This document shows positions 3,790 through 39,147 of a DNA stretch of 64,000 nucleotides, one piece after another. The notes under the pieces are model-generated. The model did no database searches and was not told where the DNA came from. It worked only from the letters and a program-made list of their open reading frames with translations. Made by a program: the position numbers and the translations under genes. The stretch's first letter is position 1. Each line of letters begins with the position of its first letter. The DNA is from Candidatus Poribacteria bacterium (GTDB taxonomy: Bacteria > Poribacteria > WGA-4E > WGA-3G): the NCBI GenBank assembly GCA_963663765.2, contig CAXXUA010000005.1:736001-800000 (forward strand), given 5' to 3'.

Positions 3790-3897
3790 CAAACAATCTC
3801 CTTGTGGCACTTGATATATAGTCGATTTTAGAATATCCTGAACACACGGACTGCGTGTGTTATAGCACAACCTGTATGAATATTAATAAGTACTTTG

Positions 3898-4073
3898 GGT
3901 AATTCTCCTAATCCAACCCTGGTAGGCGGGGAATACCTAAATGGCATTCATACCGTTGATTTCTTGATTTCTTGATTTCTTGATTTGGTGCTTGTAAGTG
4001 CGCTGTTGAGTTTTGACATACCGGCGCGCTTACAAAGCACGCCTACAGGGTTTGGTGAAAATTAGAATTACCG
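3898..4073. repeat. MITE-like element (GGTAATTCT..AGAATTACC ends) carrying a REP-A doublet and a 60-bp micro-element
   Basis: Short terminal IRs. Internal GTAGGC..GTGCTTGTAAG and inverted TTACAAAGCACGCCTAC; micro-element at 3928-3987. Confidence 0.6.
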
Positions 4074-4152
4074 AATTAGTAAATTAATCTTCATTTAGGT
4101 TGTGCAGAAATGGACAAATTTCTATATCTACAATGTACGTAAATTGAAAATG

Positions 4153-6537
4153 CTATTTCTTGTAATGCCTGTACTTTTCTGAGAAATCAAAAGTGTTAAT
4201 TATAGAAGGCATATCCCACACAAGCACAGTTCCGTCTTTACTCCCACTCACGAGAGTTTTTCCATCAGCACTGAAAGATAGGGTAGAAACATTTTTAGCA
4301 TGTCCGCTCAGTACTTTTTTACGTTCTCCAGTTACTAAATCCCACAACTGGACATTTTCCTGTCCAATACTGGCAAGCTCACTTGCTGCCTTACTTGCCA
4401 GTACCAAACCATTAGGATAGAAAAATACACGCCAATTGGTTTTCTTATATCCAGCGATTGCCTGCTTTTGCTGTCCTGTTTCAACATCCCACAGACGAAT
4501 TGAACCGTCCATACTTGTGCTTGCGAGAGTGAGTCCATCTGGACTGAAAGTTATGCTGGAGATAGCACCTGCATGTCCGTTGAATGTTCCTTTTCGTTTT
4601 GCTGTGACAACATCCCACAAGTAGATGGAACCATCCTGATTACCACTTGCAAGTGTGGCACTATCCGAACTGAAAGCAGTAATAGAGACATTAGAAGAAT
4701 TTCCAACGATAGACTTAACTGGGTTTGAAATAGTTTGCTTGTGTTTACCGGTGACAACATCCCATAAGCGTAAAGTTCTGTCTTGGCTCCCACTTACAAG
4801 TGTTTTTCCATCTGGACTAAACGCGACACAGTTAATCTTATTCGTATGGCCTTTGAGTATGCCTTTAAGCTTTCCTGTTGTGGTATTCCATAAATGGATG
4901 TTATGCTCATTACTCACATTTGTAAATGTGCGACCTGGTTTGTTCACGTTGGTCGTTTTGGTCCTTTCTTGATCAATACTCACATTTGCAAGTGTGCGAC
5001 CATCAGGACTGAAGGAAACACCAGAGATAGTTATCGGATTATAGACTGAAGCTTTTGCTTTCTGTTGTGTCATAAGGGTGTGTTTGTATTTACCTGTATT
5101 TGCATCCCACAGTTGTATGATACCTTCTGCATTCGCTGCCACGAGGGTATCACTGTCTGGACTAAATAAAATGTTACTTCCCCGTAGGTAAATAACCTTC
5201 TGAGCTTCTGTTACAAGAGATTGGTACTGTCCCGTGCTTGTATCGCATAGGAAAATTGTGTTGTTACGGTTAATGCTTGCAACTTTACTACCATCAGGAC
5301 TCAGCGAGATACTTGTGTGATCGGGTATTAAACCTGCGTAATCTCTATAATAATATCCTATAATACTTTTCTCGTGTTTGAGGTTAGTGAGATCCCACAA
5401 GTGAATGGTATGATCCATACCCGCAGTAGCGAGTGTCTTCCCATCAGTACTTAGGCAGATGTTTCTGAGATAATAGGTGTGGTCCGCGAATTGTTTGTGT
5501 TTACCTGTAGCAATATCCCATAGGCGAAGTGTGCCGCCTTGAGTAAAACCTATAACAGACCGTTTATCCGGACTGAACAGCAAGGTTTTTATCTTTTTTT
5601 CATAGTCGGTTTGCGTTACATCTGTATCTTGGCTGGAGAAAGTTTGCTTGAGCGAACCTGTCGTTGTATCCCACAAGCGAATCGTATTGTTGAGTTCCAC
5701 AGTTGCAAGTGTGCTACCATCCGGACTGAAAAAAAGTTCTTCAATTATTTCTGTCGGTTCAAGTGGTTCAGTTATCAAACCTTGATCGGCAAATGTCCTT
5801 TTACGTTCTCCTGTGGATATATCCCATAAATAGACTGTCTTGTCATCGCTGACACTTGTAAACGTGCTACCATCCGGACTGAATGAAAGTTTGGTGACAG
5901 ATGCTGTATGTCTTGTGAGTGTTTTCTTGTGTTCCCCAGTGTCAACATCCCAAAGGCAGATTGTGTGATCCTTACTGCCACTTGCAAGTGTTTGACCATC
6001 TGGACTAAACGACAAACTACGTAAATATTCCTTATGTTTTTTGAGGATGTGTTTGGACTCACCTGAACCCACATCCCATAGTTGAATATCTTTGTAATCT
6101 ATACATGCAAATGTCTGTCCATCTGGACTGAACAAAATGAAATCGCTACTAAAAAGACTATTTGTTGGGATTTTCTTAAATGTTCCCGCGTTTACATCCC
6201 ACAGTTTAATTCCTCCTCTACCCCTAGTACTTGCAAGCGTATTTCCATCCGGACTGAAAGAGAAGATCCTATTAGCGTAATATGGGTAATTACTATCACT
6301 AAATAGAGCGAGTTCTTTGAAAGTATTGGTATCATATATCCAAATACCGAAAGATGTAGCAACAGCGAGTCGAGTATCATCTGGCGAATACTTCATATTC
6401 TCTATTAAACCTTTTCCAAGTCGTAACTTAGCACCATCGGGCAAACTCCAACGCGTGTGATCTTGTGCAGAGATATTCCAGGCAAATGAAAAAGTTGTAA
6501 TAAGGATGGTTGAAAACAAAAATATTCTGTTTTTCAT
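4153..6537 (-). CDS. Secreted WD40-repeat protein
   Basis: Signal peptide ending ISA-QD, QDHTRWSLPDGAKLRLGKG motif, many WD40 repeats. Confidence 0.92.
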   Translation of the reverse strand: MKNRIFLFSTILITTFSFAWNISAQDHTRWSLPDGAKLRLGKGLIENMKYSPDDTRLAVATSFGIWIYDTNTFKELALFSDSNYPYYANRIFSFSPDGNTLASTRGRGGIKLWDVNAGTFKKIPTNSLFSSDFILFSPDGQTFACIDYKDIQLWDVGSGESKHILKKHKEYLRSLSFSPDGQTLASGSKDHTICLWDVDTGEHKKTLTRHTASVTKLSFSPDGSTFTSVSDDKTVYLWDISTGERKRTFADQGLITEPLEPTEIIEELFFSPDGSTLATVELNNTIRLWDTTTGSLKQTFSSQDTDVTQTDYEKKIKTLLFSPDKRSVIGFTQGGTLRLWDIATGKHKQFADHTYYLRNICLSTDGKTLATAGMDHTIHLWDLTNLKHEKSIIGYYYRDYAGLIPDHTSISLSPDGSKVASINRNNTIFLCDTSTGQYQSLVTEAQKVIYLRGSNILFSPDSDTLVAANAEGIIQLWDANTGKYKHTLMTQQKAKASVYNPITISGVSFSPDGRTLANVSIDQERTKTTNVNKPGRTFTNVSNEHNIHLWNTTTGKLKGILKGHTNKINCVAFSPDGKTLVSGSQDRTLRLWDVVTGKHKQTISNPVKSIVGNSSNVSITAFSSDSATLASGNQDGSIYLWDVVTAKRKGTFNGHAGAISSITFSPDGLTLASTSMDGSIRLWDVETGQQKQAIAGYKKTNWRVFFYPNGLVLASKAASELASIGQENVQLWDLVTGERKKVLSGHAKNVSTLSFSADGKTLVSGSKDGTVLVWDMPSIINTFDFSEKYRHYKK

Positions 6538-6801
6538 AGGAAGGGACTCCAGTTATACTAATTGGGATGTTATAACATTGTAGACACAATCTGTTGAGGA
6601 TGTAGTTAGTATATCATATAACAGTTTAATCTCAAGTTATTTTGTTCAATGAGGGTGTGGAATGTCTTTGGTATTTGTCTTTTCAGAATCGCGGATTACG
6701 CGGATTGCGCGGAATATTGAGTCTTCACTTACAAATCCCGTTTCAAACATTGTATGCAAACTCTTTAGGACTTACGCAGTAATGCTTGATTTTCCCATAC
6801 C

Positions 6802-7706
6802 CATAGGTGTCAACTTAGCGATTCATATTATTGTAGGAGGGAAACCTTGAAATCCCGATTTTCTCACTCAAGGTAGGCGTGCTTTGTAAGCACGCCACCC
6901 AACTGCCACCCACCTGCAGGCGTGCTTTGTAAGCGCGCCACTCAACTGCCACCCAACTGCACCCCAATTGCAGCCGTGCTTTGTAAGCGCGCCACCCAAG
7001 CGCGCCACCCAACTGCAGCCGTGCTTTGTAAGCGCGCCACCACCTGCCACCCAACTGCAGGCGTGCTTTGTAAGCGCGCCACCCAACTGCAGCCGTGCTT
7101 TGTAAGCGCGCCACCTAACTGCAGCCGTGCTTTGTAAGCGCGCCACCCAATTGCAGCCGTGCTTTGTAAGCACGCCACCTAACTGCAGCCGTGCTTTGTA
7201 AGCACGCCACCTAACTGCAGCCGTGCTTTGTAAGCACGCCACCCAACTGCACCCCAATTGCAGCCGTGCTTTGTAAGCGCGCCACCACCTGCCACCCAAC
7301 TGCAGCCGTGCTTTGTAAGCGCGCCACCCAACTGCAGCCGTGCTTTGTAAGCACGCCACCCAAGCGCGCCACCCAACTGCAGCCGTGCTTTGTAAGCGCG
7401 CCACCACCTGCCACCCAACTGCAGCCGTGCTTTGTAAGCGCGCCACCCGACTGCAGGCGTGCTTTGTAAGCGCGCCACCAATGATAGCAGTGCTTTGTAA
7501 GCGCGCCACCCAACTGCACCCCAATTGCAGCCGTGCTTTGTAAGCGCGCCACCAATGGTAGCAGTGCTTTGTAAGCGCGCCACCAATGGTAGCAGTGCTT
7601 TGTAAGCGCGCCACCCAACTGCACCCCAATTGCAGCCGTGCTTTGTAAGCGCGCCTACCGAGATGGGGTATTTAGCAGTTGACTTTTTCTTAAGTTGACA
7701 CCTATG
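6802..7706. mobile_element. MITE shell (TIR CATAGGTGTCAACTTA) containing an expanded REP-A array
   Basis: CATAGGTGTCAACTTA at 6802 and TAAGTTGACACCTATG ending 7706; 20-bp flanking repeats 15/20 identical. Confidence 0.7.
6872..7659. repeat. Tandem array of 21 REP-A palindromes (GGCGTGCTTTGTAAGCGCGCC core, ~32-bp basic unit)
   Basis: 21 copies of GTGCTTTGTAAGC counted. Array starts GGTAGGCGTGC and ends GCGCGCCTACC; linkers are re-used, not unique. Confidence 0.9.
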
Positions 7707-33821: not shown

Positions 33822-34192
33822 GAGCTTTGTAAGCGCGCACCGAACGGTAGGCGTGCTTTGTAAGCGCGCCCCACAACTGCAGGCGTGCTTTGTAAGCGCG
33901 CCCCACAACTGCAGGCGTGCTTTGTAAGCGCGCCCCACAACTGCAGGCGTGCTTTGTAAGCGCGCCCCGTTGATTTGGTGCTTTGTAAGCGCACCCCCGA
34001 TGGTAGGCGGGGAATGCCTAAATGGCATTCATACCGTTGATTTGGTGCTTTGTAAGCGCGCTCCCCAACTGCAGGCGTGCTTTGTAAGCGCGCCCCCCAA
34101 CTGCAGGCGTGCTTTGTAAGCGCACCCCCCAACTGCAGGCGTGCTTTGTAAGCGCACCCCCCAACTGCAGGCGTGCTTTGTAAGCGCACCCC
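33822..34192. repeat. Second REP-A tandem array (~11 units) with micro-element
   Basis: GCAGGCGTGCTTTGTAAGCGCGCC units with ~31-32-bp period; micro-element 34009-34044. Confidence 0.88.
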
Positions 34193-35053: not shown

Positions 35054-36094
35054 AGACATTATAATGATTTAGTTGCAAAGTTTAGTTAACCTCTGTTATA
35101 TTAATTACAATCTTATAAATGGAGGTTATAACATGATCATTTTTGAAAATATCAAAGACAAAGCTAATACGCTTCTATCCCTCACTGGATATACTTTAGA
35201 GGAGTTTACAGCACTATTGCCTCATTTCTCTAAGAGTTTTTTAGAGTATATGGAAACACATACACTTGATGGAAAACCGCGTAAAAATCGGAAATATAAA
35301 CCCTACAAGAATAGTTGTTTTGCTTCCCTTGAAGATATGTTGCTATTTATATTAATTTACCTTCATGAAGCTCCGAAGCAAGTTCTATTCGGCACGCTCT
35401 TTGGTATGTCTCAACCTCTTACCAATAAATGGATCCACTTGCTTTTGCCGATATTGAACACCGCATTAGCAGAACTTGGAGAGGTGCCATCTCGGGAAAC
35501 AGACCCCGCATCTCTGCGTGGTGCTTGTGAGGTATCAACTCAAAGTCAAGAAGGAGAACTTTTTTTCATGATGGTGTAGAGCGACCCATACTGCGTCCAA
35601 AAGACCCGCAAACTCAAAAGGCGTATTATAGCGGTAAAAAGAAATGCCATACAGTAAAAAACAATCTGATAATCAATGAACACTGCAAAGTCGTTTTATT
35701 GACACCTTCTTTTGAAGGAAGACACCATGACAAACGGATAGCTGATATCGTAGGTTATTGTGTGCCACCGGGAAGCACATTGTATCAAGATACCGGTTTT
35801 CAAGGGTTCGACCTTCCTGATGTAAACATTGTTCAACCGAAGAAAAAACCAAAAGGTAGAGAACTTACGGATGAAGAAAAAGAAAACAATCGGAAGATAG
35901 CATCCATACGCATACGTATTGAACATGTGATTAGTGGTATCAAAAGATACCGCATCGTCAAAGATAAACTCAGAAATTGGAAGAAAGGGTTTAGTGATTC
36001 AGTAATGGAAACCTGTTGTGCCTTACACAATTTTCGACTAAATTTCAGACCCTGGCGATATGAAACTCCTGCGATTTAATTCATTATAATGTCT
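35054..36094 (+). mobile_element. IS5-like (ISL2-type) insertion sequence, copy 2
   Basis: Same TIRs and ATT flanks as 8083-9145. Confidence 0.88.
35133..36079 (+). CDS. Transposase, -1 frameshift
   Basis: Same two-ORF structure; T7 run at 35560-35566. Confidence 0.85.
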
Positions 36095-36162
36095 ATTATT
36101 TGATTTTTGATACATCATAAACTTGAAGGTAGAGTGACAGTATCTAAATATCTACATATTTC

Positions 36163-36191
36163 TTGACATTCCTTGATATTTATGTGATACT
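36163..36191 (+). promoter_or_regulatory. Putative promoter for a leaderless tnpA transcript
   Basis: TTGACA-17 bp-(TGn)GATACT, 6 nt before ATG 36198; no SD. Confidence 0.5.
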
Positions 36192-36197
36192 ATATAC

Positions 36198-36785
36198 ATG
36201 ACTTATGTATCAGCGCGCAAAGCAAGTGAGCTGCTGGATTATACACCTGACCATTTACGGAGGTTGGCAAATGAAGGAAAGATTGATATTATCCGCACAG
36301 GAGGCGGACACAGACGCTATGATGTTGACGGATACATCAAAAGCAAATCCAAATCAATTGCAACTGTTTGCTACTGCAGAGTATCTAGCACAAAGCAAAG
36401 AGAAGACCTTGAACGACAAGTTGAATATATGCGAAGTATCTACCCCGAAGCAGAAGTTATCCGAGACATCGGAAGCGGAATCAACTTCAAAAGAAAAGGG
36501 CTTAGAACCTTATTGGAACGGCTTATGCAAGGTGATAAGCTCAAAGTTGTTATTGCCCATTGGGATAGACTCGCCCGCTTCGGTATCGACCTTATACAAT
36601 ACCTCATTGAACAAAACGGTGGCGAACTCGTGGTTCTCGATCAAACAGAACACAGTCCGCAAGAAGAACTCACGTCGGATCTTCTCGCAATCCTGCACGT
36701 CTTCAGTTGCAGAATGCACGGACTCCGAAGTTACCGTGACAAAATCAAAGAAGATAAGAGTTTATCCGACAACAGAACAACGTGA
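36198..36785 (+). CDS. tnpA: IS607 serine transposase TnpA
   Basis: MerR-like HTH (RTGGGHRRY), YCRVSS catalytic Ser, DIGSGINFKRKGL, DRLARFG. Confidence 0.95.
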   Translation: MTYVSARKASELLDYTPDHLRRLANEGKIDIIRTGGGHRRYDVDGYIKSKSKSIATVCYCRVSSTKQREDLERQVEYMRSIYPEAEVIRDIGSGINFKRKGLRTLLERLMQGDKLKVVIAHWDRLARFGIDLIQYLIEQNGGELVVLDQTEHSPQEELTSDLLAILHVFSCRMHGLRSYRDKIKEDKSLSDNRTT

Positions 36786-37854
36786 AACACTGCGTCAGTG
36801 GTTTGGCACAGCACGTTTTACTTATAATAAAACAATTGCTTTGTTGAACGAAACAGACACAAAAGCGAATTGGAAAGCGATAAAAACAGGTATTCTTCAC
36901 GATCTTCCTGATTGGAGCAAAGAAACACCGTATCAAGTGAAATCTGTTGCTATCCGTGACGCTTGTATTGCTGTCCGAGAAGCAAAGCGAAAATGCAAGA
37001 AAACAGGTCAATATCAGTCTGTTTTTTTCAAATCCAAACGTCATCCATCAGATAGTATTTTCATACCAAAGTCTGCTATAAAACCTCGCGGTGTTTATCA
37101 CACAGTGCTTGGTGATCTCAAAATGTCAGAGATGTTACCTGATAATATCTGTGACTCACGCCTCGTGAAAGAGAATGATAAATACTATCTCTGTGTTTCC
37201 TATACTGTGACAACTCCGAAGCGAAAACCAAACGGAAGTGTTGTTGCTTTAGACCCTGGCGTGAGAACATTCCTCACATATTTCCATGAGCGTGGTTTCG
37301 GATGGCTTGGACACCATGCTATCAATCGGATTCAAAGACTTTGTTCATACCTTGATAATCTTTTATCCCGTGCAATAAAAGCGACACAACAATCACGCAA
37401 GAATATGAGACGTGCTGCAAATCGCATCAGAAAACGTATCAGATATCTTGTTGACGAGTTGCATCATAAAATAGCACGTTTCCTTGTGGATACCTTTGAT
37501 ATTATCCTACTCCCTACTTTTGAGACTTCAGATATGGTAATGCGTGGAAACCGCAAACTACACAAGAAGTCTGCCCGACAAATGTTGACACTGTCGCACT
37601 ACAGATTCAAACATTTTCTAAAGCACAAAGCGAAAGAGACTGGATGTCTCGTCATTGATGTCTGTGAAGCATACACATCAAAAACAGTGTCGTGGAATGG
37701 TGAGATTAGAAAATCACTCGGTGGACGAAAGATAATAAAAGATAGCATGGGACTCAAGATGGACAGAGACTTGAATGGCGCACGCGGGATATTTTTGCGT
37801 GCTTTGGTAGATGAACCCTGGTTGCTTTCTATAAGCAACTTGCAAACCGTATAA
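36205..37854 (+). CDS. tnpB: RNA-guided nuclease TnpB, pro-Fanzor/Fanzor2-like clade; start uncertain (36205 ATG or 36736 GTG)
   Basis: KIRVYPT..WFGTARFTYN, ALDPGVRTF, ILLPTFE, EAYTSKT, DRDLNGARGI. Confidence 0.9.
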   Translation: MYQRAKQVSCWIIHLTIYGGWQMKERLILSAQEADTDAMMLTDTSKANPNQLQLFATAEYLAQSKEKTLNDKLNICEVSTPKQKLSETSEAESTSKEKGLEPYWNGLCKVISSKLLLPIGIDSPASVSTLYNTSLNKTVANSWFSIKQNTVRKKNSRRIFSQSCTSSVAECTDSEVTVTKSKKIRVYPTTEQRETLRQWFGTARFTYNKTIALLNETDTKANWKAIKTGILHDLPDWSKETPYQVKSVAIRDACIAVREAKRKCKKTGQYQSVFFKSKRHPSDSIFIPKSAIKPRGVYHTVLGDLKMSEMLPDNICDSRLVKENDKYYLCVSYTVTTPKRKPNGSVVALDPGVRTFLTYFHERGFGWLGHHAINRIQRLCSYLDNLLSRAIKATQQSRKNMRRAANRIRKRIRYLVDELHHKIARFLVDTFDIILLPTFETSDMVMRGNRKLHKKSARQMLTLSHYRFKHFLKHKAKETGCLVIDVCEAYTSKTVSWNGEIRKSLGGRKIIKDSMGLKMDRDLNGARGIFLRALVDEPWLLSISNLQTV

Positions 37855-37912
37855 GATGTGAAATGCACAGCATTGCACGGAAATATACAGGTTAATATCA
37901 TCGGAGATGAAT

Positions 37913-38335
37913 ATGGCAGTATTTTTACATACACGGGTTCGCGTAAGCGATCTTGATAAATCTATTAATTGGTATTGTGATCATTTGGGGTTCAAAGTTC
38001 GTAGCAGGAGTGACAAATCCCCCGCAGGCAACCAAATTGTGCATCTGGAACTTCCGGGCAACGCACACACACTGGAATTAACCTATTCCCCTGATTTCGA
38101 TCTTCAGGTGCAGGAAGACCTAATGCATTTTGCTATCGGTGTTCCCGATCTCGTAGAATTTTGCGACGGTTTGGATAAAGCAGGTTTGGAAATTTGGCCA
38201 GATGAGTGGCGTAAACAGTTCACATCCGGTGGCATGAAGATGGCGTTCATCACGGATCCAGATGGCTACGAAGTAGAACTATTGGAACGTAAAGACGCTG
38301 CAGGTGATCAACTGGATGTCCTCAAAGAATCCTAA
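37913..38335 (+). CDS. VOC/glyoxalase family protein
   Basis: FLHTRVRVSDLDKS, LELTY, HFAIGV, FITDPDGYEVEL. Confidence 0.9.
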   Translation: MAVFLHTRVRVSDLDKSINWYCDHLGFKVRSRSDKSPAGNQIVHLELPGNAHTLELTYSPDFDLQVQEDLMHFAIGVPDLVEFCDGLDKAGLEIWPDEWRKQFTSGGMKMAFITDPDGYEVELLERKDAAGDQLDVLKES

Positions 38336-39147
38336 GTATAGGGCCAGAACTGATTCCATGCTGTCATCCAACCTTTTGCGTGACTTTCTACGGTGACCGG
38401 ACCTGTTATTTCAATACCCGGTCTCCCTTTGAAGTCCGCGAGTTTATCTACAGTGGACACTTCAATCTTAATTGTTGTCGGTTTGGAAGGAATGTACGGA
38501 GGAACCCTCGTTAAATCTGAGAGTGCTTCTTTGGTTGCATTTTCAATCAGTTTGCGAGCTCGCACGGGTGGGATTTGTCTTGCACTGTACTTACTGAGTC
38601 CCTTTTTGACAGCAAGTGTTGGCAATTCGTCACCGAGTAGTTCTTTTGCTTCTCTACACACAGCAGTGTCCCCAGTAACAAGTGCGATCGGAACTCCGTA
38701 ATGTCCATTGAGCGCAGCGTTGACACCTGTTTCTCCAACAAGATCATCGTTGAACCAAAGGTTTCTATATTGAACTGTAGAAATTGTATGACACAGTACG
38801 CCGTCAGGTGTGTTGTTACGGGCATGCATTCCGATAAGCAAACACGCGTCACATCCATCTTTCCACATATCCTCAAATCGTCCCCAACCGTGGTGTGCGA
38901 CCCATTCACAATCGGGATGGATTTTTTCTGGTATAAGCGAATTAAATGTCCAACCTCTCCCCGCGCCATGGCAATCAACGACAACAATCTCTGTAGCACC
39001 CGCGGCTTTTGCACCGCGCACAGCAGCGTTTATCTCTTCTGTGTAGAGAAGTCTACCCTCTTCAAACATCGCAGCACCGCCATCAACTTGATCCCACACG
39101 ACGATGCCGCTTACGCCTTCCATATCCGACATAATCAATACTCGCAC
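38332..39147 (-). CDS. M55 family D-aminopeptidase (DppA-like)
   Basis: SDMEGVSG, DCHG, GMHA, LCHT, VTGD motifs. Confidence 0.9.
   Translation of the reverse strand: MRVLIMSDMEGVSGIVVWDQVDGGAAMFEEGRLLYTEEINAAVRGAKAAGATEIVVVDCHGAGRGWTFNSLIPEKIHPDCEWVAHHGWGRFEDMWKDGCDACLLIGMHARNNTPDGVLCHTISTVQYRNLWFNDDLVGETGVNAALNGHYGVPIALVTGDTAVCREAKELLGDELPTLAVKKGLSKYSARQIPPVRARKLIENATKEALSDLTRVPPYIPSKPTTIKIEVSTVDKLADFKGRPGIEITGPVTVESHAKGWMTAWNQFWPYT

Follow-up and report, generated by a model that had tools for sequence, protein, structure and literature searches.

We examined an insertion sequence (IS) of the IS607 family in a 64,000-nucleotide stretch of a Candidatus Poribacteria genome (hereafter the window, whose numbering is used throughout), in which the transposase gene tnpA (36198..36785, +) is followed on the same strand by the nuclease gene tnpB. 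Our analysis supports the reading that TnpB is made here as a long protein of 527 aa (36271..37854, +), initiated at ATG 36271 and with its first 155 codons overprinted on tnpA, and that this long form works as a nuclease; we would give this reading a probability of roughly three in four. The protein consists of a 155-aa N-terminal extension and a 372-aa TnpB core. The core corresponds to the usually annotated short TnpB (372 aa), which starts at GTG 36736..36738 (+), where the first core strand and the HTH_OrfB_IS605 domain begin. The nuclease gene is thereby about 465 nt longer at its 5' end than in the textbook layout, and the dual-coding stretch (36271..36785, +), with tnpA read in frame 0 and the extension of tnpB in frame +1, spans 515 nt and covers 88% of tnpA.

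The 195-aa product of tnpA is a serine-recombinase transposase, with Pfam matches to Resolvase (1.5e-19, aa 57-179) and, at aa 5-43, to MerR, MerR_1 and HTH_17. As a first-pass annotation of the window had described, the full open reading frame (ORF) in the TnpB frame (36205..37854, +, 549 aa) lies in the +1 frame of tnpA, begins 7 nt downstream of its ATG, overlaps the gene by 581 nt and contains 177 codons before GTG 36736. It matches HTH_OrfB_IS605 (PF12323, aa 179-216), OrfB_IS605 (PF01385) and Cas12f1-like_TNB (PF07282), and no Pfam family was found within its aa 1-177. That annotation had counted the extension from ATG 36205. The long N-terminal extension itself stands, but the conserved start lies at 36271, which gives 155 instead of 177 codons and an overlap of 515 nt.

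The long form is widespread. When the 549-aa ORF was used as a protein query, many predicted proteins 524-533 aa long were recovered, covering 89-96% of the query, with identities down to 53%. A scan of species-representative genomes gave 526 relatives, and the locus counts reported here rest on the best 80 of these 526, ranked by the full 549-aa query; they came from Poribacteria metagenome-assembled genomes (MAGs; up to 94% identity), many cyanobacterial genera and one Latescibacteria MAG. A tnpA gene with 47-96% amino-acid identity to the window TnpA is adjacent in 79 of the 80 loci, and the gene order of IS607, tnpB downstream of tnpA on the same strand, is found in the window and likewise in 79 of the 80. 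Wherever tnpA is adjacent, the TnpB frame is +1 to it (79/79). In 77 of the 80 loci it remains open for 133 codons or more ahead of the core, the exceptions being L007, L066 and L017. Dual coding explains why, between phyla, no other DNA of the element is as well conserved as the overlap. Moreover, a profile search of 1.84 billion cluster representatives yielded 10,608 matches at E <= 0.001, and among the best 150 of these, the nearest 50%-identity cluster representatives, a hidden Markov model built from the extension only detected the extension in 97. The published pro-Fanzor pattern with a zinc finger is present in 51 of these 150, more distant representatives, 35 of which carry the extension, and extension-only profiles of the window clade and of the zinc-finger forms align to each other with an hhalign probability of 99.9% (E 4e-35). 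TnpBs of canonical IS607 controls match the window TnpB only from residue ~156 on. Public annotation already contains long forms without comment, for example a 538-aa Moorena protein.

The openness of the +1 frame is not a matter of chance. In the window, the one stop that the +1 frame of tnpA contains is the TGA within ATGACT, located upstream of 36205. When the synonymous codons of tnpA were shuffled 20,000 times, which preserves the TnpA protein and the codon usage, the shuffled genes averaged ~7.5 stops with a minimum of 2, and none of the 20,000 was as low as the observed gene; of 20,000 codon-order shuffles, none was free of stops. The naive estimate of 2e-4 given by the first-pass annotation therefore understates the signal. 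The stop depletion which it had proposed to look for in homologous elements is present: among 27 representatives (clusters below 85% nucleotide identity; 6 of 33, with a tnpA ORF below 185 aa, were dropped), the sequence between the start of the extension and the stop of tnpA contains 0 stops vs 127.2 expected by shuffles, and 167 of 54,000 shuffles (~0.3% per locus) were stop-free. Two canonical IS607 elements on plasmids served as controls, one from Peptoclostridium (L083) and one from Bacillus wiedmannii (L084). They resemble the window element in that tnpB follows tnpA on one strand and in its +1 frame, and in their G-rich or GG ends or targets. In contrast to the window element, their tnpA/tnpB overlaps measure only 23 and 38 nt, vs 515 nt, and their 20 and 24 stops in the +1 frame are at chance level, with shuffle means of 18.4 and 22.5.

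The position of the start was mapped in 67 sequences with a placeable tnpA start, 13 loci without the expected start codon and L017 having been dropped. Stops of the +1 frame bunch in the first 70 nt of tnpA and then cease; in one Poribacteria subclade they reach tnpA nt 142. Most loci share a common ATG at +67 to +76 relative to tnpA, which is 36271 in the window, and some lineages start further in, at +121 to +202. Only the window and its closest relatives, L001-L003, are open back to ATG 36205 (tnpA nt 4), and the 22 codons of this non-conserved, upstream-most part (36205..36270, +) are probably untranslated. A Shine-Dalgarno-like GGAGG (36259..36263, +) lies 7 nt upstream of ATG 36271, and motifs of the AGGA/GAGG type precede the common ATG in many loci. 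Initiation of the long TnpB is thus placed most likely at ATG 36271. Upstream of both genes, a consensus scan found a promoter-like site matching 10 of 12 positions (36163..36191, +; TTGACA, a 17-nt spacer and GATACT at 36186-36191 with an upstream TG), which is a pattern match only, with hexamers largely kept in close copies. Its 3' end is 6 nt upstream of the tnpA ATG, and within 36163-36200 this ATG is not preceded by a Shine-Dalgarno motif; the tnpA message may accordingly be near-leaderless.

Both frames of the overlap are under purifying selection. For the selection analysis, L007 and L066 were removed from the 67 sequences on account of their broken frames, and the codons of the remaining 65 were aligned. 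The analysis used 233 pairs with at least 75% identity within eight clusters, which drew on 57 of the 65 sequences, and a modified Nei-Gojobori count in which each site was sorted by its effect in both frames. In the overlap, where third positions of tnpA coincide with second positions of the extension, the difference at these positions is 0.198, vs 0.340 at third positions of the non-overlapping core. The ratio of nonsynonymous to synonymous rates (dN/dS) was 0.41 for the extension (confidence interval (CI) 0.32-0.52) and 0.17 for tnpA, and all eight clusters agreed. Mock frames used as controls behaved otherwise, with 0.89 (0.76-1.01) for the +1 frame in the core and 1.45 for the +2 frame in the overlap. 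When only first positions of tnpA were counted, the real frame gave 0.46 (0.32-0.65) vs 0.86 for the mock frame. The reduced synonymous rate in tnpA, another check suggested by the first-pass annotation, was also found: sites that are synonymous in tnpA and change the extension evolve at a rate of 0.39, vs a core dS of 0.78. Along the extension, residues 1-78 have a tnpA-synonymous rate of 0.667 and a dN/dS of 0.52, and the next 64 residues a rate of 0.252 and a dN/dS of 0.36. Purifying selection acts on the extension, most strongly in the part for which AlphaFold predicts structure, and the evidence for this lies in the contrast with the controls.

Moreover, the long frame outlives tnpA. In seven loci (L013, L015, L027, L028, L046, L050 and L051) the long tnpB frame is intact and tnpA is truncated. 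A similar case is found on plasmid pCC7120alpha of Nostoc PCC 7120 (L081, 2383-4207), where an intact 553-aa ORF, 34% identical to that of the window, keeps the extension motifs and the tnpA frame has an in-frame stop; RefSeq annotates a 391-aa 'transposase' only. The reverse pattern, an intact tnpA with a broken extension, was found in none of the loci compared (best 80 of 526). Together with the stop depletion across lineages and the controlled signal of purifying selection, this strongly supports the dual-coding region which had been proposed from the window sequence alone.

The core of the protein keeps its catalytic residues. The RuvC-I Asp-Pro-Gly (37252..37260, +; invariant D350, P351 and G352 in the numbering of the 549-aa ORF) aligns to the IDPG of the mimivirus Fanzor2 L79. 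The position of the canonical RuvC-II Glu is occupied by Pro (37513..37515, +; ILLPTFE, invariant P437), facing the Gly of ICIGKL in L79. The C-terminally shifted RuvC-II Glu (37666..37668, +; CEAYTSKT, invariant E488) lies 135 residues after the DPG, is followed by AYTSKT and faces the Glu of VNEYLTTKTC in L79. The RuvC-III Asp is the second D of MDRDLNGARG (37768..37770, +) and aligns to D501 of L79. The triad D350, E488 and D522 is complete, with the first two invariant in 29 sequences and D522 present in at least 90%. In L79, the corresponding triad is D324/E467/D501, of which Glu467 is described as catalytic (PMC11832414). The DPG, the Pro of ILLPTFE and the shifted Glu of EAYTSKT were thus found at the motifs where the first-pass annotation had placed them, and they are invariant in relatives. 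The WED/REC/RuvC core of a TnpB is present, with the three TnpB Pfam domains and Foldseek matches to structures of TnpB and Cas12f at 1e-15 and below.

The assignment to the pro-Fanzor type, made on the same grounds, stands for the DPG and the shifted Glu but not for the cysteines. The published pattern combines the DPG with a Glu six residues before the first CxxC and 120-160 residues after the DPG (PMC10711439). None of the 120 closest relatives has a CxxC..CxxC zinc finger, and VSWN and KDSMG stand in its place (37669-37770). Judged by these residues, the window clade has lost the zinc-finger cysteines of TnpB, and its protein would work like a pro-Fanzor yet fails the literal published pattern. 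Compared with the pro-Fanzor or 'TnpB2' proteins that Yoon et al. 2023 (PMC10711439) describe from IS607 elements of Cyanobacteriota, the window gene shares the IS607 context with a serine-recombinase TnpA, the DPG and a catalytic Glu moved to just before the zinc-finger position, and it has relatives in many Cyanobacteria. In contrast to them, the window clade is without the CxxC..CxxC cysteines and its nearest relatives are from Poribacteria.

The extension appears to have two parts. Its residues 1-79 (36271..36507, +), rich in Ser, Thr, Lys and Glu, are predicted to be disordered, and residues 80-143 (36508..36699, +) are predicted by AlphaFold to form a helix-helix-hairpin module. In the model, built from 108 sequences, residues 81-144 reach a predicted local distance difference test (pLDDT) of 56-74, the core being mostly above 80, and the secondary-structure elements are H85-93, H103-109, E110-116 and E124-130 (model numbering). 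The module contains the motifs PYW..C..ISS.LLLP and KTV..SWFS, with invariant W, L, P, S and W.

By both sequence and fold, the best solved relative is the mimivirus Fanzor2 (L79, 9b0l), with values of 2.4e-25 in the sequence search, 3.5e-33 with a profile and 6e-23 with Foldseek. The Foldseek alignment covers 477 columns to Fanzor2 9b0l vs 394 to TnpB 8h1j. For giant-virus proteins 511-527 aa long, the alignments span 522-552 columns with a TMq of 0.57-0.68; the TMq of shorter viral proteins (401-416 aa) is 0.54-0.58. The structure of mimivirus Fanzor2 is described as having a disordered nuclear localisation signal (NLS; residues 1-53), followed by an N-terminal domain (residues 53-130) with RuvC-R and thumb (PMC11832414). 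Both proteins therefore have a rearranged triad and, before the first core strand, an N-terminal extension (~130 aa there, 155 here), which begins there with a disordered head followed by a structured part, as is predicted here. They differ in that the mimivirus protein belongs to the viral and eukaryotic side, carries an NLS and keeps the zinc finger, whereas the window gene lies in a bacterial context and not in a eukaryote or a eukaryotic virus; moreover, the N-terminal domain of Fanzor2 is not detected by extension-only profiles. The sole sequence hint is a short SWF/SWY match: a full-length profile of zinc-finger long forms matches L79 at 6e-65 and aligns SWF confidently with the NSWY in the RuvC-R segment. 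Finally, a search of the ESM Atlas with residues 1-156 gave best scores of 0.84 and 0.83 to short clusters, which are below the value of 0.9 that is meaningful for the tool and can serve as a lead only; ~60% of the members of these clusters have HTH_OrfB_IS605, and one cluster consists mostly of Nucleocytoviricota.

The first-pass annotation had suggested the extension as a source of Fanzor N-terminal domains. Layout, Foldseek alignment lengths and the SWF/SWY match agree with such a link, and sequence profiles do not, so that a common origin of the extension and the Fanzor2 N-terminal domain is plausible but unproven. We regard it as a tentative idea, rather doubtful at present, that the Fanzor2 N-terminal domain was born de novo as an alternative frame inside an IS607 tnpA and later became stand-alone. 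The RuvC-R/thumb module, which the Fanzor2 structure paper calls unique (PMC11832414), would then be the PYW/SWFS extension of Poribacteria and Cyanobacteria, and the overprinted disordered head might have been raw material for the nuclear localisation signal of Fanzor.

Several points weigh against a long, functional TnpB. The selection figures are indicative, since they come from a home-made, OLGenie-like estimator, the pairs are phylogenetically non-independent and the confidence intervals were obtained by codon bootstrap only; and the constraint on the extension (dN/dS 0.41-0.52) is far weaker than that on the core (0.11). The first ~80 residues are predicted to be disordered, with a pLDDT of ~28, and in a second AlphaFold model, made for a protein of the zinc-finger subfamily (P0136, 35 sequences), nearly all of the extension has a pLDDT below 50, the SWFS strand alone reaching ~62. 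Neither the extension-only profile built from 33 extensions nor a profile of 8 zinc-finger N-termini found Fanzor2 among PDB sequences at E <= 10, and against all PDB sequences both returned nothing below E 0.1. Since the Shine-Dalgarno-like motif falls within conserved Arg/Lys codons of tnpA, its conservation cannot count as separate evidence. Of the 120 top predicted proteins, 10 are short (358-386 aa), and RefSeq has only the short form in Nostoc PCC 7120 and Trichormus. The profile of the breadth search itself included the extension, and ranking by the whole 549-aa query favours long forms; however, this ranking bias cannot explain the open frames, because chance gives only ~0.3% stop-free frames per locus.

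Part of this evidence would suit a regulatory explanation, which we consider unlikely though it is the strongest competitor. The extension would be translated, but its value would lie in regulation: a tnpB start inside tnpA would tie nuclease output to the transcription and translation of the transposase, or the ribosomes of one frame would limit the other. Long and short isoforms would both be possible, and the amino-acid sequence would be of little weight beyond the openness of the frame. Indeed, the start varies by lineage from +67 to +202, the promoter-like site leaves tnpA almost leaderless and tnpB has an internal Shine-Dalgarno-like motif, the tnpA-synonymous rate of the disordered head (0.667) is near the core dS (0.78), and the second AlphaFold model is poor across the extension. 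A purely regulatory role fits badly with the 65-residue module, which is under selection at the amino-acid level (dN/dS 0.36) and in which the tnpA-synonymous rate is down threefold, and with the invariant Trp, Pro and Leu of the extension. Moreover, the long frame is retained where tnpA is dead, and in these loci no transposase is left to couple.

That only the short TnpB from GTG 36736 is made, the open +1 frame being a by-product of constraints on tnpA or of codon-pair bias, seems to us very improbable. The extension is without a Pfam family, some databases annotate short forms, and the conserved motifs of the extension lie opposite conserved motifs of TnpA, as a by-product would have it. 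Shuffles that preserve protein and codon usage nevertheless expect 3-7 stops per locus, canonical IS607 tnpA genes are without depletion, mock frames are without a selection signal, and the frame survives the decay of tnpA. We give slightly less credence still to programmed ribosomal frameshifting, which would produce a fusion of the TnpA N-terminus to TnpB as in the orfAB of IS1 and IS3 types. Such fusions are common in other IS families, and tnpB is +1 to tnpA in every locus with an adjacent tnpA. On the other hand, a common in-frame ATG with a Shine-Dalgarno-like motif marks the beginning of the stop-free stretch, and none of 14 candidate fusion relatives of ~600 aa has a Resolvase domain.

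Under the preferred reading of a long TnpB initiated at ATG 36271, the extension would be the younger frame, arisen by overprinting, and must be so given the ancient origin of the serine-recombinase family, of which TnpA is a member. The overprint would most likely have grown upstream from the short +1 overlap of ordinary IS607 elements, since in these tnpB already begins a few codons within tnpA, in the +1 frame. One DNA stretch read in two frames is known from overprinted viral genes and from the two-frame transposase genes of IS1 and IS3. As in these, the younger frame has an unusual composition and is for the most part disordered; unlike them, it forms here the N-terminal domain of a separately initiated enzyme, and no frameshift fusion is indicated. 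The single promoter-like site might give a message starting at or just before the tnpA ATG, on which TnpA would be translated leaderless and the nuclease from its own ATG, 73 nt downstream and led by a Shine-Dalgarno-like motif. The module of residues 80-143 would fold against the TnpB core. The long TnpB is expected to work like other IS607 TnpBs, because its core keeps the triad of Asp (DPG), shifted Glu and Asp. With an RNA guide from the right end of the element, it would cut the emptied donor site beside a G-rich motif and so keep the element in place, by analogy with the donor-site cutting and restoration described for characterised IS607 TnpBs in a review (PMC13565253).

Full-text literature searches, which did not extend to subscription journals and supplements, found no description of a long tnpA/tnpB overlap. 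The accessible texts of Yoon et al., Schargel et al., Bao and Jurka, Gilbert and Cordaux, Altae-Tran et al. and Jiang et al. mention at most 'two overlapping ORFs' in general or partial overlaps, and likewise those of a six-species TnpB survey, the IStron paper and a 2026 review. In the searched main text of Yoon et al. 2023 (PMC10711439), 'overlap', 'N-terminal', 'extension' and 'open reading' do not occur, so that the pro-Fanzor description published in that main text does not include the overprinted extension of 155 aa. Gilbert and Cordaux report that eukaryotic copies match the cyanobacterial ISArma1 over ~590 aa in all, and that an Acanthamoeba copy has a 100-aa N-terminal insertion relative to ORFB of ISArma1.

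Pro-Fanzor TnpBs are the proposed bacterial ancestors of eukaryotic RNA-guided nucleases, and our results suggest that these bacterial relatives of the Fanzor nucleases are probably longer than usually drawn. If the true product carries the 155-residue extension, biochemical and genome-editing work with the short annotated ORF may test a truncated enzyme. If the common origin holds, Fanzor2 would not owe its N-terminal domain to a eukaryotic innovation, and the origin of this domain could be tested as an instance in which overprinting gave rise to a functional domain. The region is also an unusually long and widely conserved case of bacterial dual coding, taking in 88% of a gene in at least two phyla, and the overlap couples the evolution of the transposase to that of the nuclease. 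Annotation pipelines call the long or the short form, at times omitting tnpA.

As for the element as a whole, it is present in a single copy in the 64-kb window, and comparison with 8 close copies at other genomic sites bounds it at 36130..37904 (+), ~1.78 kb. Similarity to these copies begins directly 3' of the flanking GG at 36128-36129, and the right bound is ...ATCATCGG at 37904. The left flank ends in GG in 7 of the 8 close copies (the exception being L010), left flanks are G-rich, with ...AGG in most copies, and the right end ...CGG is found in 8/8 close copies and in 19/19 aligned loci. The mobility of the element is seen in L001-L003, three copies with different flanks on one Poribacteria chromosome, and several copies are present in other chromosomes. 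The right end (37855..37904, +), together with the 3' part of tnpB, is the presumed omega/reRNA scaffold, in which case the guide would begin at 37905. In this right end, RNAalifold predicts 13 pairs from 19 aligned loci, 5 of them with compensatory changes; an Rfam scan of 35500-38500 found no known guide-RNA family at E <= 1, returning two weak, chance-level matches only. Around the tnpB stop, a hairpin (37810-37904; in the window GTTGCT...AGCAAC) still pairs via different sequences in other loci, and the direct repeat GTTAGCAA is present twice in cyanobacterial right ends. The hairpin and the direct repeats are probably the guide-RNA scaffold and TnpA-binding repeats. In one Poribacteria copy (L017), an insertion of ~440 bp (4621-5063) just past the tnpA stop splits the long tnpB.

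Relatives of 600-706 aa (P0236, P0245, P0257, P0269, P0243 and P0132) have the same extension motifs and, between extension and core, Lys/Glu-rich inserts, which resemble nuclear localisation signals; these proteins have zinc fingers. The possibility that the relatives of ~600-700 aa are in-frame TnpA-TnpB fusions was rejected, as the 14 that were scanned had no Resolvase domain. With residues 1-200 of P0257 as query, P0257 itself was the sole match, and the profile of 8 zinc-finger long-form N-termini matched 12 longer proteins, one of which is named and comes from a Geitlerinema cyanobacterium.

The genes surrounding the element are bacterial, encoding a glyoxalase and an M55 peptidase, and the nearest copies of the element are in Poribacteria genomes. 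The element sits between a split DDE_Tnp_4 transposase remnant and the glyoxalase gene. The remnant consists of two adjacent ORFs at 35073-36079, of 168 aa (HTH_Tnp_4) and 126 aa (C-terminal part of DDE_Tnp_4), and looks like a split IS5/Harbinger-type transposase gene, ending 50 nt before the left end of the IS607 element. In another Poribacteria genome, an element of a different subfamily (L032, ~3835-5700), whose TnpA and long TnpB are 61% and 53% identical to those of the window, lies directly upstream of orthologous genes for the glyoxalase (90% amino-acid identity) and the M55 peptidase (86%; L032 flank 5700-6936, window 37907-39147). Its insertion point is at most ~10 nt from that of the window, and the shared site may reflect repeated targeting, replacement or old shared ancestry. 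Further upstream in the window, a tandem array of a 32-nt unit (33824-34192), which also gave self-matches, has 11.6 copies with 78% matches.

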